From the IMG/VR virus record IMGVR_UViG_3300025382_000033, positions 1 to 29,924 of that record: 29,924 bases of DNA; one strand, 5' to 3'. Origin of the DNA: a virus (Duplodnaviria > Caudoviricetes). The notes beneath the pieces were generated by a model that did no database searches, was not told the DNA's origin, and saw nothing but the letters and a program-made list of their open reading frames with translations. How positions within the stretch are numbered: position 1 is the first letter of the stretch; every line of letters starts with the position of its first letter. The translations under genes were made by a program, and so were the position numbers. This document shows, piece by piece, positions 6,626 through 24,317 of this stretch.

Positions 6626-8110
6626 ATGAGCGAATATTCAGGTTCAGATCAACAGCCTTACGCGCAACAGACAACGACAAAAGGCCCAACACAGAGCAAA
6701 CTTGATATGAGTCAAGTGGCTTTTAGTTCTGCACCTAATTATGAAGGTATGCCTACCGAGTATTATGACAAAAATGGGCAACTTATTGGGTACTTAGCAA
6801 ACGACAATAATGTAATGTCTACGGCTGGATTGAATTTTGTAAACCCAGATGGGACGCCAAGCTCAGGTGCAATTAACAAGCACTCCCTATATCAAGCCAC
6901 AGATGAGAATGGTAATTTATTATTTAACCCTACTGCGGACACCCAAGCAGGTGAATCTCCTGTTTATTCAACACAAGATCAAGGACGCGGAGCGGTAGCA
7001 CAACAATTAGCTGGTCTTATTAAAATGAATGCTCCGTCACCGGGCATTTTTCAAGACCCTTTATTCCGTAATTTTGGCTTGTCAGCACTTGCTATGGCAG
7101 GTGGCGCTGCATTAGCACCAGAGCTTGCAGGAGCTGGCGCAGGTGCAGAAGCCTTTCCTGTTGCGCTTGGCGATAGCATCACGATGTCACCTTTAACAGG
7201 TAGCGTTGCTGGTCTTGGCACAGGCTCTCTTACAGAAGGATTAACACCTGCCATGATTGCGGCGCAGGAAGCCGCATTGCCAGCTAATATGGCACAAATC
7301 GGTGGCTTAGCCTCTGGTGCAGGCGGAGCTGGCGCATTAACCGCAGCACAAGCGCTTCAGTACGCAAAATTGGGATTGTCTGGACTCGGTCTTGCCAATC
7401 AACTTGTAAATAGTGCAGGCGGTCAAGGCGGTGGTCAAGGTGGAAGTGGTCAGGGAAATACAACAAATAACACGACAGCGGTGAGCCAGAACGGGCCGTG
7501 GAACACGTTTCTCCACCCCACTGAAATCAAACAAGATGTCGTTTCGCAAAAGCCAATTATGCAAAACCCAGAATTAGCCAAGCTTTATCAAAGTCTCGAC
7601 CCATATCTCGCCAATCAATTGGCGCAGTCTGGTCTGATCCCATCAAACCTTGGTGGTGGTCAACAACAACCCGTCCAGCCTCAAGCGCCAACGCAAAGCT
7701 ACTTCACTTATGGATCGCCTGCACAAACTACGCAACCGACATCCATCGAAGCACCGATGCGAGCATTTGCAAATGGCGGCAGCGTGTTGGGCTCATTTAT
7801 GGATGGGGGTCAAGAACATGTTCCTGAATTTATTACTGGCGCAACTGGTCATTATGTCAAGGGACGTGGTGATGGGCAGGCTGATTTAATCCCAGCGATG
7901 CTCGCTTCGGGAGAATATGTGTGGGATTCTGATATTGTTTCTGCGCTTGGAAACGGAGATTCTGATTCAGGCGCTAAAGTTTTGGATGGTATGCGTCAGG
8001 CAATTAGAGCACATAAAAGATCTGCACCTTTAAGTGATATACCACCCAAGGCAAAGTCCCCATTACAATATATGAAAGATGCTGAAAAATATATTCAGAG
8101 GGACAAATGA
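6626..8110 (+). CDS. Internal virion / ejection protein
   Basis: Gly/Ala/Gln-rich with hydrophobic stretches; C-terminal VKGRGDGQADLIPAMLASGEYV motif of the type seen in tape-measure and internal proteins. Confidence 0.65.
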   Translation: MSEYSGSDQQPYAQQTTTKGPTQSKLDMSQVAFSSAPNYEGMPTEYYDKNGQLIGYLANDNNVMSTAGLNFVNPDGTPSSGAINKHSLYQATDENGNLLFNPTADTQAGESPVYSTQDQGRGAVAQQLAGLIKMNAPSPGIFQDPLFRNFGLSALAMAGGAALAPELAGAGAGAEAFPVALGDSITMSPLTGSVAGLGTGSLTEGLTPAMIAAQEAALPANMAQIGGLASGAGGAGALTAAQALQYAKLGLSGLGLANQLVNSAGGQGGGQGGSGQGNTTNNTTAVSQNGPWNTFLHPTEIKQDVVSQKPIMQNPELAKLYQSLDPYLANQLAQSGLIPSNLGGGQQQPVQPQAPTQSYFTYGSPAQTTQPTSIEAPMRAFANGGSVLGSFMDGGQEHVPEFITGATGHYVKGRGDGQADLIPAMLASGEYVWDSDIVSALGNGDSDSGAKVLDGMRQAIRAHKRSAPLSDIPPKAKSPLQYMKDAEKYIQRDK

Positions 8111-8733
8111 AAAAATGTGAAAAACTTGCTGCAGCAAAACTAAACGGTTTTGTTCATTACATTACAGGTAGACCTTGTAGTAAAGGTCATATCTGTGAAA
8201 GACTAGTTTCAGATCGTTCCTGTGTTAAATGCAACCGCACTAAAGCACAAAATAAACGTGATTCAATGACCGCTGATGAAAAATATGCACATGGTTTAAA
8301 GTATCGGCATATCCAAAAAAAATGGTTAAAAACTGAAGTAGGTTGTATTAGTCGTCAAAAAACTGGACAAAAATATTATCAAAACAATCAAGATAAATTG
8401 GCAGAATATCGCAAAGAATACAATTTAAAAACCAATAATTTTCATTCCAAGCGTTGGAAAAAAGAAAATCCAGAAAAACGACATGCTGATGTTGCCAAAC
8501 GTCGTGCATCAAAATTGATGCGCACGCCAGTATGGTTGGATGCTACACAAAAAGCAGAAATTGATTTTACTTACGAGTATTGCGCTGCGTTGAGGTCGAT
8601 TGGCATGGATTACCACGTTGATCATATTGTTCCATTGCAAGGAAGGACAGTATCTGGATTGCATGTGCCGTTTAACTTGCAGGTTATTCATGCGAAAGAC
8701 AATTTGCGCAAAGCAAATAATTTAAGGAAATAA
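8107..8733 (+). CDS. HNH endonuclease (probable homing endonuclease)
   Basis: N-terminal Y.TGRPC.KGH...R......C..C zinc motif; C-terminal YHVDHIVPLQG..VSGLHVP.NLQVI....N..K.N; AT-rich relative to flanks. Confidence 0.92.
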   Translation: MKKCEKLAAAKLNGFVHYITGRPCSKGHICERLVSDRSCVKCNRTKAQNKRDSMTADEKYAHGLKYRHIQKKWLKTEVGCISRQKTGQKYYQNNQDKLAEYRKEYNLKTNNFHSKRWKKENPEKRHADVAKRRASKLMRTPVWLDATQKAEIDFTYEYCAALRSIGMDYHVDHIVPLQGRTVSGLHVPFNLQVIHAKDNLRKANNLRK

Positions 8734-20578: not shown

Positions 20579-20932
20579 ATGGGCATGGTTAAAAATATGA
20601 ACGAGCAGGAATATTCGCCTCATAAAGCGATTGACTACATCATCCAGAACGCTGGCAAGTTCGCACGAGCTCGCGCTGATCGCGTGTACATCGAGGAGTA
20701 CCGCAAGTCACTCAAGGCGCTGCTGATGAAGCGCTCTGGCGAGAAAGTGATTGCAGCTCAGGAGCGAGACGCATATGCTCACGATGACTACGCTGCATTG
20801 CTGGAGGGGCTCAGGGATGCGGTGGAGACCGAAGAGAAGCTGCGGTGGGACTTGATCGCAGCTCAGGCAAGGATAGAGACGTGGAAGGCGCAAACTTATA
20901 CTGACAGTAAAACAGATAAACTGTTAAAGTAA
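20579..20932 (+). CDS. Conserved hypothetical phage protein (helical)
   Basis: EEYRKSLKALLM...AAQERDAYA motif. The start could instead be at 20597. Confidence 0.7.
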   Translation: MGMVKNMNEQEYSPHKAIDYIIQNAGKFARARADRVYIEEYRKSLKALLMKRSGEKVIAAQERDAYAHDDYAALLEGLRDAVETEEKLRWDLIAAQARIETWKAQTYTDSKTDKLLK

Positions 20933-21027
20933 TGTATGCGATGGCTACCTTTAGCGGGGGAAAAGACGATTCATCACCGTCCTGCCATTGTCATTTCGTG
21001 ATGATTTCTACCTTGATGGGGTACGAC

Positions 21028-21525
21028 ATGCTTGAATACATTAAAGCCAATTTTGAATATCGTGATGGCGTTCTTTACAGAACAACAAAACGTGGTGGCG
21101 AAGCTATAGGCAAAGCCGCTGGATGGTTGACCATATGCAATGGAAAACCATATTGGAAACTTAGTGTTATGGGTAAAACAAAGTATATGCATCATGCAAT
21201 ATTTTTGTTTCATCACAAATATTTACCAGAAAGAATTGACCATATTGATGGTAATTCAACAAACAACAGAATTGAAAATTTGCGTGCAGCGACTCAAAGT
21301 CAAAACATGGGTAACAGCCGCATTAAATCAAACAATACAAGTGGCTACAAAGGCGTAACTTTCAGGAAAGATACTGGTAAATGGCAAGCTGCAGTCATGT
21401 TGAATGGAAAGCACATTTCTTTAGGTTCACATGCAACAAAAGAAAAAGCTGCAGAAGCATATGCAACTGGTGCAAAAAAATATTTTCAAGAATTTGCAAA
21501 AATTGATACAAAACTGACACTGTGA
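21028..21525 (+). CDS. HNH endonuclease with C-terminal AP2-like DNA-binding domain
   Basis: IDHIDGN..NNRIENLR.AT.SQN..N followed by N.SGYKGV......KW.A......K.I.LG......AA.AY; AT-rich. Start at ATG 21028 is preferred over 20932. Confidence 0.92.
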   Translation: MLEYIKANFEYRDGVLYRTTKRGGEAIGKAAGWLTICNGKPYWKLSVMGKTKYMHHAIFLFHHKYLPERIDHIDGNSTNNRIENLRAATQSQNMGNSRIKSNNTSGYKGVTFRKDTGKWQAAVMLNGKHISLGSHATKEKAAEAYATGAKKYFQEFAKIDTKLTL

Positions 21526-21992: not shown

Positions 21993-22021
21993 TTGACATA
22001 TGAATTCGTTAAGATTATATT
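21993..22021 (+). promoter_or_regulatory. Sigma70-type promoter for the accessory/modification operon
   Basis: TTGACA(21993-98)-N17-TATATT(22016-21). Confidence 0.8.
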
Positions 22022-22432: not shown

Positions 22433-22645
22433 ATGAAATTCTGCAAAGACTGCGCCAATTATTCCCCAATGAAATACAGCAAGGATGACGGCATCTGCTC
22501 CGCGCCTCAGCATGGCATCAATTTGGTGTCTGGCGAAATGAACACGCGCACCTGCGGTGATCAGCGCTCGGTCAACAGCTCGCCGCTGTACTGTGGCTTG
22601 CAGGCTATGTTCTTTGTGCAAAAACCATTTGAGTCTGTTGAATGA
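22433..22645 (+). CDS. Small Cys-rich protein
   Basis: MKFCKDC...C...C...CG; AAGGA RBS; ATGA overlap with the methyltransferase. Confidence 0.72.
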   Translation: MKFCKDCANYSPMKYSKDDGICSAPQHGINLVSGEMNTRTCGDQRSVNSSPLYCGLQAMFFVQKPFESVE

Positions 22646-23667
22646 AATTCATTGAACTTTTTGCTGGCATCGGTGGCTTTCGCCTTGGGTTAGAAAAGGC
22701 GGGTCACCAGTGCGTGTGGGCAAACGAAATATTAGACAAGCCACGGAGGATATATGAAAGAAACTTCGGACACCAACCTGATGGACGAGACATTAGAACT
22801 GTTTCCCCAGACGACATCCCAGACGCTGACCTCCTTTGTGGAGGATTCCCGTGCGCGACTTTTTCAGTTGCTGGAAAGCGATCTGGATTCTCAGCGGAAG
22901 ACACTCGAGGTACTCTCTTTTTTGAAATCTGTAGGATTCTCAGAGACAAGCGAATACCGTATGTTTTCCTTGAAAACGTCAAAGGACTCCTCAACCACGA
23001 CGGCGGACGAACCTTTGCTGTCATCATCTCAAGTCTTGATGAACTGGGGTACGACGTTCAATGGGAAGTTGTTAACAGCCAAAATTTTGGAGTCCCGCAA
23101 AATAGGGAGAGGGTATTTATTGTCGGACATCTTAGAGGAAAACCCCGACCCAAAGTATTTCCTCTCGGACGATGCATTCCAGAGGATGTTCAAGCGCAAG
23201 ATCAAACAGAAGCCGACGAAAGAGGTCGAACCAGATACGACACAGGCAACTCTATTCTGATGCCGTTTGTCACTGGCAAAGTCATGCAGGTCAAGGACGT
23301 GTTCCCAACGCTCGACGGCCACTACTGGAAGGGAATACAAAACAATCAGGGTCGTGGTGCTGTCATGCAAGTGCGTGCGGTGCTCACGCCTATGCGCAAA
23401 GAGAAACGCCAGAACGGTCGCAGGGTAAAGGATCACAACGAGCCAGCATTCACTCTGACCGCGCAGGATCGTCATGGCGTGATTGTTAATGAGAGGCTTA
23501 GGCGATTAACCCCGCTCGAGTGTGAGCGCCTCCAAGGGCTTCCTGACAATTTTACGAAGTGGTACGCAGATGGCACTGAAGTTAAGGACGCTGAACGATA
23601 CGAGCGGTGCGGCAGGACAGTAACGATCCCAGTTATTTACGAAATTTCAAAGAGGTTACCAATATGA
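22642..23667 (+). CDS. C5-cytosine DNA methyltransferase homologue; predicted carboxymethyltransferase variant
   Basis: Motif I ELFAGIGG, IV GGFPC(A), VI ENVKGLL, VIII PQNRERVFIVG, IX RRLTPLECERLQGLPD, X CGRTVT (canonical GN(A/S)V). The family call is secure; the altered chemistry is an inference. Confidence 0.92.
   Translation: MKFIELFAGIGGFRLGLEKAGHQCVWANEILDKPRRIYERNFGHQPDGRDIRTVSPDDIPDADLLCGGFPCATFSVAGKRSGFSAEDTRGTLFFEICRILRDKRIPYVFLENVKGLLNHDGGRTFAVIISSLDELGYDVQWEVVNSQNFGVPQNRERVFIVGHLRGKPRPKVFPLGRCIPEDVQAQDQTEADERGRTRYDTGNSILMPFVTGKVMQVKDVFPTLDGHYWKGIQNNQGRGAVMQVRAVLTPMRKEKRQNGRRVKDHNEPAFTLTAQDRHGVIVNERLRRLTPLECERLQGLPDNFTKWYADGTEVKDAERYERCGRTVTIPVIYEISKRLPI
22754..23260 (+). CDS. Nested +1-frame ORF, EcoHK31I beta-subunit-like
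   Basis: 168 open codons wholly inside the MTase gene; GGAGG immediately upstream of the ATG; contains WGT.FNG.L.T....E......LSDILE....PKYFLS, which I recognise as beta-polypeptide-like. Confidence 0.65.
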   Translation: MKETSDTNLMDETLELFPQTTSQTLTSFVEDSRARLFQLLESDLDSQRKTLEVLSFLKSVGFSETSEYRMFSLKTSKDSSTTTADEPLLSSSQVLMNWGTTFNGKLLTAKILESRKIGRGYLLSDILEENPDPKYFLSDDAFQRMFKRKIKQKPTKEVEPDTTQATLF

Positions 23668-24317
23668 AGTCATGGACATTTGAGACAACAGAGATTGCAT
23701 CAATTTTTGATGATCATGTGCGCGAGCAATTGCCGTGGTACGACATGGCGACGGATGCGGTGTGCTATATCGTGCGCAACTATCTGACCGATGGCGAGAT
23801 GGTGGTTGACGTCGGCGCATCGACTGGCAACACGATCCACAACCTTATGCCATTGCTTGAGGAGCGCAAAGCGGAAGTGCTTGCAATTGAGAAAAGCAGC
23901 AGCATGGTCGACGTGATGCTGGAGCGCTTTAAGAACAACCACAACGTGACAGTCAATGAATTTGACATATGTAATTACAATCTGCCGCCAGCTCAGGTTT
24001 ATATCGTCTTCCTGACAATGATGTTTATACCCGTGCATAAGCGTGAGGCTGTTTTAAAGGCGATCAGAGAGAATTTAAAAAAGGGTGGGGTAATCATATT
24101 GGTCGACAAGGTTTGCGATCACACAGGGTACTTCTCTACAGTCCTGAAGCGCCTTGGCATGCACTGGAAAATTCGTCAGGGTGCTCAGCTCGGCGCTGTG
24201 ACAGATAAAGAGATGAGCTTGGCTGGAGTACAAATTCCATTTGACGCAGCAATGATCCCAGACGGTAAGCTGTTTTTCCGCATGGGTGAGTTTGCTGGAT
24301 GGGTGATAGAAGGATGA
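23664..24317 (+). CDS. CmoA-like SAM-dependent enzyme (carboxy-SAM synthase family, divergent)
   Basis: WTF...IA..FD.HVR..LPWY, VDVGASTG, LTMMFIP...R..VL..I...L..GG.IILVDK, K...G.....V..K..SL.GV and FFR...FAGW. This parallels E. coli CmoA along its length, from memory. ATGA overlap with the MTase stop. Confidence 0.78.
   Translation: MKSWTFETTEIASIFDDHVREQLPWYDMATDAVCYIVRNYLTDGEMVVDVGASTGNTIHNLMPLLEERKAEVLAIEKSSSMVDVMLERFKNNHNVTVNEFDICNYNLPPAQVYIVFLTMMFIPVHKREAVLKAIRENLKKGGVIILVDKVCDHTGYFSTVLKRLGMHWKIRQGAQLGAVTDKEMSLAGVQIPFDAAMIPDGKLFFRMGEFAGWVIEG

Follow-up and report, generated by a model that had tools for sequence, protein, structure and literature searches.

In phage S-B43, CmoA makes carboxy-SAM (Cx-SAM), CmoX writes 5-carboxymethylcytosine (5cxmC) at GC via Arg350, and CmoY adds glycine (PMC12783734). 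Arg350 of SpCmoX contacts the Cx-SAM carboxylate, the wild-type enzyme uses Cx-SAM only, an R350N variant used neither cofactor, and protection against HhaI is demonstrated there for SpCmoX only (PMC12783734). Cytosine carboxymethyl chemistry and the cmoA operon layout are already published (2025). The earlier note on the DNA studied here had mentioned a report of a phage cytosine carboxymethyltransferase, and this report does exist, with the same chemistry and residue; the operon layout, which the note had singled out as still meriting study, appears in it as well (PMC12783734). The same study (Yang et al., Nat Commun 2025) gives 5,615 candidates, filtered on SPPC plus Arg. The enzyme described here is of GFPC type with no SPPC, so that by the stated filter it falls outside this set, and its motif strings are absent from the portions of the supplement that were examined.

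Changing Asn to a basic residue at motif X makes carboxymethylases of M.MpeI (N374K) and M.MedI (N377K). M.MedI N377K keeps full methylation with SAM, and thus a basic residue need not exclude 5-methylcytosine (5mC) (PMC12015181). Mutation Q82A lowers M.HhaI methylation about 16-fold (PMC3526304). In M.EcoHK31I, a second chain is encoded in another frame within the alpha gene, and both chains are needed (PMC2836561). Further sources cited are PMC10491745 and PMC7496830.

The locus lies in a 29.9-kb phage record, the whole stretch of DNA analysed (hereafter the window), which is one partial genome. Profile scans of its ORFs find lysis, virion, ejection, helicase, primase and resolvase functions. 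The runs holding the locus are freshwater metagenomes from one year, possibly from one campaign, and no RNA run is among those listed. The host clue is a sole match, with 85% identity across 103 aa, to a contig of 1.7 kb from a betaproteobacterial bin. Two free-standing HNH endonuclease genes are also present (8107-8733 and 20932-21525), one of them between virion genes and the other carrying an AP2 domain. A putative sigma-70-like promoter (21993..22021, plus strand; 11/12 match) precedes the gene cluster, though such matches are not above chance in the region (2, vs 2.9 in shuffles). The cassette is accessory among 28 loci gathered via the helicase: one of these (91% identical) has another kind of Arg writer, together with cmoA, at a comparable place, and in three (83-87% identical) the fetched flank holds no cassette. 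In a related genome that is 91% complete (G154), there is no cmoA match.

We conclude that this locus is probably a 5-carboxymethylcytosine system, composed of a CmoA-like synthase and an MTase-fold writer that is likely an alpha/beta pair. At the sequence level, the case rests on catalytic motifs, an Arg where the carboxylate is bound, linkage to cmoA, a conserved nested frame and a separate branch in trees. As for every GFPC-type enzyme, the activity is predicted from sequence.

The alpha chain and its CmoA-like partner

The alpha chain (22642..23667, plus strand) is a C5-MTase-fold protein of 341 aa that matches PF00145 with 270 bits, and it is a predicted cytosine C5-carboxymethyltransferase (CmoX-like, GFPC-type). 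The motifs named in the earlier note are all found in this ORF: NEILDKPR (motif II) at residue 28, GFPC at 68-71, PCA at 70-72, ENV at 111, RER (the RxR motif) at 155, and CGRTV (motif X) at 323. Aligned to M.HhaI, the catalytic Cys71 and the adjacent Ala72 (22852..22857, plus strand) take the positions of Cys81 and Gln82. Arg325 (codon AGG, 23614..23616, plus strand) sits, as the note had supposed, at the motif X Asn position, aligning with Asn304 of M.HhaI ("GNSV") and with Arg350 of SpCmoX ("GRMV"). Identity to SpCmoX is 26%, and the SpCmoX pocket residues Phe25, Glu47, Asp69 and Cys98 correspond to Phe7, Glu29, Asp50 and Cys71 of the alpha chain. Leu31 (22732..22734, plus strand) occupies the motif II position that column counts of Asn- and Arg-type sequences show to be acidic in ordinary enzymes. 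In the predicted fold (mean pLDDT 69.9), residues 72-83 and 177-244 are poor. The closest fold is that of M.HhaI (Z 27.8, rmsd 3.0, 268 aligned, with 36-37% identity in the structure alignment of the scaffold), and the CmoX structure 8YF3 gives Z 23.0 and rmsd 3.5 over 259 aligned residues. Arg325 is kept in all of the best 120 homologues (PCA in 119) and is invariant across a 111-sequence alignment, and the Ala72 position is Ala in 64/64 GFPC Arg-type sequences. An assembly error at the Arg325 codon is excluded by these 120 homologues and by the contigs of runs X14 and X16, neither of which is flagged as the source and in both of which the codon is unchanged. By analogy with SpCmoX R350N, an R-to-N revertant of Arg325 may be dead rather than a methylase.

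When viral loci were gathered with the MTase alone (n=56), 51 had Arg at motif X, 2 had Asn, and 3 ended before motif X. The earlier note's proposed linkage of Arg motif X to an adjacent cmoA is borne out: a cmoA-like ORF adjoins the MTase, or is one short gene or gap away, at 50/51 Arg loci, and the remaining locus ends 26 nt past the MTase stop. Neither of the two Asn loci has cmoA. In a set of 200 distinct full-length enzymes, 112/132 Arg vs 0/61 Asn enzymes have cmoA no more than 1.5 kb away, a count that is biased by locus fetching and whose Asn controls are mostly cellular genes with 1.5-kb flanks. These cmoA-linked Arg loci are relatives, not independent events. At the GTPC-type MTase loci of related phages, cmoA is present in 0/17.

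Several observations concern the wider neighborhood of these genes. Some cmoA-like genes have no C5-MTase in the fetched flank (L119, L121, L123-L132, L135, L138, L140 and L141), with a ligase-like ORF upstream of the cmoA-like gene in L119, and Gordonia phage Evaa has a ParB-fused methyltransferase with a cmoA-like gene. Considering the cmoA-only loci, there may be Cx-SAM acceptors other than C5-MTases. Some cyanophage-like contigs (L179, L180, L184 and L204) carry a tandem pair of SPPC/Arg CmoX genes, and on a contig from a Clostridia bin (L231:688-3038) a short GFPC Arg enzyme of 275 aa, a second MTase and cmoA stand in a row.

The CmoA-like gene (23664..24317, plus strand; 217 aa) starts in an ATGA overlap with the MTase stop, just as the earlier note had it, and its product is predicted to be a carboxy-SAM synthase. 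The best PDB matches are CmoA/YecO (E 5.6e-12). The best NCBIfam model is TIGR00740, with 71.3 bits, below its curated cut-off of 193.3; this model was scored for the window protein only. Identity is 21-22% to two tested synthases (22% to SpCmoA) and 38.5% to the Mcat8 protein, which adjoins an SPPC/Arg enzyme. Compared with the CmoA reference residues Phe20, Tyr39, Gly64, Ser66, Phe137, acidic 164 and Lys165, the lid and SAM-binding residues are kept (Phe6, Tyr26, Gly51, Ser53, Phe121, Asp148 and Lys149), and six such residues are invariant across 122 sequences. In E. coli CmoA, both Arg199 and Asn132 contact the cofactor, Arg199 being the carboxylate partner in a salt bridge (PMC3663124). 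Their counterparts are Glu183 and Phe in the window protein, and Glu and Leu in the active SpCmoA; the Lys beside Glu183 is invariant in 122/122 CmoA-like sequences. In a quick tree, the subfamily includes the Mcat8 protein and the partners of three writer lineages are interleaved, which suggests that cmoA is exchanged.

The same evidence bears on whether this is a dual-cofactor or plain methylase, making mainly 5mC with SAM beside a CmoA-like protein that does something else. Such an enzyme would fit a scaffold that is nearest to ordinary methylases (its core is 61-62% identical to that of Asn-type sisters), the full methylation kept by M.MedI N377K (PMC12015181), and a CmoA-like protein without Arg199. 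It is very improbable given the near-complete linkage to cmoA, the parallel pocket changes in three lineages, and the fact that SpCmoX, which bears the Arg, accepts Cx-SAM only (PMC12783734). The preferred reading, a writer encoded with its own cofactor supply as in the earlier note, is supported by the motif X alignment and the linkage, the enzyme activity being predicted. The system was also called self-contained, and this stands in part: a predicted cofactor synthase is encoded, but prephenate and SAM come from the host.

A cmoY-like gene is also found in the cassette at 7/51 Arg loci. Neither PF00733 nor cmoY has a match in G005 (70% complete) or in the complete close relatives G146 and G147, in a search where the positive controls G150 and G151 matched. 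There is likewise no cmoY in G148 and G149, searched with no positive control, or (with PF00733) among the 39 scanned ORFs of the window, itself a partial genome. Because no ligase was found, 5cxmC is likely the end product. It is unlikely, though worth bearing in mind, that the mature base is an amide or another derivative, formed by a ligase that is encoded at some other place in the genome or belongs to a different family: the seven cmoY-bearing cassettes and the partial state of both the window (29.9 kb) and G005 leave room for it, and the controlled searches, together with those of G148, G149 and the window, go against it.

The nested frame and the TRD-like modules

What the earlier note described as two genes is likely three ORFs, the nested beta chain having been missed. 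Within the alpha gene, a +1-frame ORF (22754..23260, plus strand; 168 aa) is predicted to encode this chain on the basis of its open frame, its likeness to MM1 orf14, phrog_16143 and a complex model. Over motifs IV-VIII, the +1 frame is open in 56/56 distinct clade genes, vs 0/56 for the +2 frame and 0/56 for a downstream region used as controls, and under synonymous recoding a stop-free +1 frame has P 0.011. Diversity at four-fold sites is 0.33 and 0.22 over most of the overlap, and 0.47 at 6 sites near the start, compared to 0.54 and 0.65 outside. The beta ATG is at the homologous place in 48/55 genes. Ahead of it, a GGAGG Shine-Dalgarno-like site (22745..22749, plus strand) lies in the Arg35-Arg36 codons of alpha, with a similar site in 26/55 clade genes. 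Over 118 aa, beta is 58% identical to phage MM1 orf14, which is annotated as a "C5 methyltransferase beta subunit." Matches to beta occur in 102 phage and 51 plasmid records, and the nested gene therefore predates the Arg change.

The alpha/beta complex model scores 0.75, with 0.00 for the best of three controls; the mark for this score is reached by 116/157 solved complexes and 2/215 mismatched pairs. At least 71% of contacts are shared between runs, with a partner pLDDT of at least 54. In the model, residues 98-101 of beta are paired with residues 138-143 of alpha, and the 123-138 segment of beta is packed against alpha 287-297. It may be that the model passes because the pair looks like solved single-chain methylases. 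Enzymes of the M.EcoHK31I type carry motif IX on beta and lack it on alpha. By alignment, alpha 287-299 resembles motif IX of M.HhaI. Motif naming differs between papers.

Could the nested frame be an ancestral leftover, or reflect an RNA-level constraint, with alpha working alone? This is quite unlikely. Alpha does contain motif IX-like and motif X segments of its own, and the beta ATG and SD-like site are each absent from some genes (present in 48/55 and only 26/55). Set against this are the +1 frame open in 56/56 genes vs 0/56 in controls, the reduced synonymous diversity with P 0.011, the complex model at 0.75, and the beta chain requirement of M.EcoHK31I (PMC2836561). The enzyme is likely two-chain, with alpha and beta encoded in overlapping frames. 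In two Asn-type genes (L053:4935-6072 and L238:277-1606), the +1-frame chain extends into the TRD and motifs IX-X, and the first frame stops after motif VIII, so that the same two-frame gene is divided in another way.

The C-terminus of beta reads QATLF (23243..23257, plus strand), a putative motif which we take, by consensus, to be like that for sliding-clamp binding. A QxxLF-like end is present in 39/56 beta chains vs 1/337 control ORFs, the pattern having been set post hoc.

In the multispecific C5-MTases of Bacillus phages (SPR, phi3T and rho11), several short TRD modules are arranged in tandem. The alpha chain has two TL-containing TRD-like modules: M1 (residues 222-231; 23305..23334, plus strand), which reappears across the clade with its order and copy number varying, and M3 (residues 244-279; 23371..23478, plus strand; phrog_8411), also found in the Asn-type enzymes of phages EC99P2 and CDKM9. 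Short TL-containing modules come in eight arrangements in 56 genes under strict patterns, which 10 genes did not match. Site avoidance was considered as a clue to the target and rejected. In the window, CCWGG occurs 0 times vs 129 expected, GGWCC 0 vs 55, and GGCC 18 vs 149; none of the 8 clade records counted, of which one (G005) overlaps the window, has any CCWGG, and the clade records are also depleted of GGWCC, GGCC and CCGG. However, relatives with no cassette in the fetched flank (L369, L371 and L372) have 0, 0 and 2 CCWGG sites, so this scarcity gives no clue to the enzyme's specificity, and at GCWGC there are differences between genomes whose modules are identical.

A mechanism can be proposed by comparison with SpCmoX. 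Carboxy-SAM would be made by the CmoA-like protein from the SAM and prephenate of the host. The alpha/beta enzyme would then flip out the target cytosine, with Cys71 attacking C6 and Arg325 holding the cofactor carboxylate, and the carboxymethyl group would be transferred to C5 of cytosine in the phage DNA. SAM would be disfavoured, aided by the loss of the Gln82 equivalent. Beta would complete the fold in trans and may, through its tail, anchor the enzyme to the replication clamp, and the TRD-like modules would set a few short target sites. The 5cxmC would be left unligated, probably as the end product, and its purpose is likely protection from restriction; it may, as the earlier note suggested, evade methyl-directed nucleases as well.

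The origin of the motif X arginine

In a 55-row tree, the GFPC Arg clade falls among ordinary Asn enzymes, apart from the SPPC clade, with which other Asn enzymes group as sisters. The diagnostic columns were masked, and 29/84 representatives omitted (3 misaligned or partial, 26 thinned). A single clade of GFPC Arg and SPPC CmoX enzymes is rejected with this set (p-AU 7.4e-5) and again with 51 rows including SPPC and background enzymes under a mixture model (p-AU 1.4e-8). In a 99-row quick tree where SpCmoX was the sole SPPC row, it fell inside the GFPC Arg clade (SH-aLRT 99, branch 2.8); this is read as a long-branch pull, and the 51-row mixture-model tree separates the two. The distant GFPC Arg enzyme L231 is unplaced in both the 99-row and 51-row trees. 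Among the nearest 150 representatives at 50% identity, 8 have Arg, 129 Asn and 1 Lys, and 12 are unresolved by pattern.

A single origin would mean that the Arg-bearing C-terminus, or the whole enzyme as a divergent member, came from the SPPC CmoX family. The E-R-x-G-R of motif X, common to GFPC Arg and SPPC Arg enzymes (64/64 each), points that way, as does the quick-tree placement of SpCmoX; yet this origin is very unlikely, as one clade is rejected when SPPC and background rows and the mixture model are used. The motif IX-X flanks also resemble the Asn sisters, matching GFPC Asn phage-type sisters at 18-24/34 positions and SPPC Arg enzymes at 7-11/34, which lends no support to a module swap from SPPC CmoX. 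There may still be a very short recombined tract from the SPPC family in the window enzyme. From its sequence, this enzyme appears to have arisen separately from SPPC CmoX.

A third Arg lineage, of GSPC type with motif X "ALGRSM" (7 sequences, with cmoA), is separate as well (p-AU 1e-38). In its loci (L061:4989-6757, L083, L241-L244, L248 and L368), the MTase is directly behind cmoA; its Asn sisters are without cmoA, and the lineage is present in a phage whose helicase shares 91% identity with that of the window. The motif IV and II deviations pointed out in the earlier note hold throughout the clade, and turn up again in the other Arg lineages. An acidic residue stands at position 31 in 62/76 Asn-type vs 2/135 Arg-type sequences, and in 80/89 Asn vs 0/6 Arg in an independent representative set. 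The acidic residue of motif II is lost in all three Arg lineages. Gln follows the catalytic Cys in 70/76 Asn vs 7/135 Arg sequences, all seven belonging to the third lineage. These Arg, motif II and motif IV counts represent three lineage-level events, not hundreds. Two Staphylococcus phages, SPbeta-like and vB-SscS-F1 (L136:4980-6679 and L142:4980-7498), have cmoA next to a GSPC MTase in which Gly occupies the motif X position and motif II position 31 is Arg, and L142 also carries a cmoY-like gene. These Gly-type enzymes may represent a fourth solution, in which the basic residue comes from another place. Some SPPC phage enzymes (L271, L272 and L274-L277) carry Met or Leu as their motif X residue and lack a nearby cmoA; they lie inside the SPPC Arg clade and are possible cases of reversion or of a further cofactor change.

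A broader reading can be put forward tentatively, and may well prove wrong: on three or more occasions, phages would have turned ordinary C5 methylases into carboxymethylases, following one short recipe, and the window lineage would be a two-chain, clamp-tethered, multi-site writer with swappable modules, acting at the replication fork and missed by the SPPC survey and by gene callers. The recipe consists of changing the motif X Asn to Arg, losing the motif II acid and often the motif IV Gln, and capturing an exchangeable cmoA. In the literature searched, mostly without subscription papers, no description was found of the separate origin, the two-chain form or the three-position signature, nor any paper on the MM1 alpha/beta pair, clamp motifs in phage methylases or convergent origins. 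If this reading is true, 5-carboxymethylcytosine would be commoner than the SPPC-based count, of repeated origin, and predictable from a three-position signature. An M.HhaI-like scaffold with natural swappable target modules would then be a source of site-specific carboxymethyl writers, an engineering goal in the 2025 CmoX paper (PMC12783734). Carboxymethyl writers already serve sequencing methods. Recoding the alpha gene for expression would destroy the nested beta gene, and a false negative could result.

Comparison with known systems

Like S-B43 CmoX (PDB 8YF3), the window enzyme has a C5-MTase fold, a catalytic Cys, an Arg at the HhaI Asn304 position, a non-Gln residue after the Cys and a hydrophobic motif II position, and both loci have an adjacent cmoA with no cmoB. 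They differ in that CmoX is an SPPC enzyme with a shown GC dinucleotide specificity, whereas the window enzyme is of GFPC type (26% identity), on a separate branch, with a nested beta frame and an array of TRD-like modules. No cmoY was found in the window, and its CmoA is of another subfamily (22%).

In having beta wholly inside the alpha gene, the locus is like M.EcoHK31I as described in PMC2836561, and like orf13/orf14 of MM1 (DQ113772). Unlike the window enzyme, M.EcoHK31I is an ordinary methylase, according to the same source, and MM1 has the motif X Asn and no cmoA within 1.5 kb, the function of its beta chain being an annotation. The tandem TRD-like modules, varying between relatives, are like those of the SPR, phi3T and rho11 MTases. 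Finally, the same two pocket positions are changed as in the engineered M.MpeI N374K, M.MedI N377K and M.HhaI Q82A/N304A, but unlike these the window enzyme is natural, has Arg instead of Lys or Ala, and comes with its own predicted cofactor supply.
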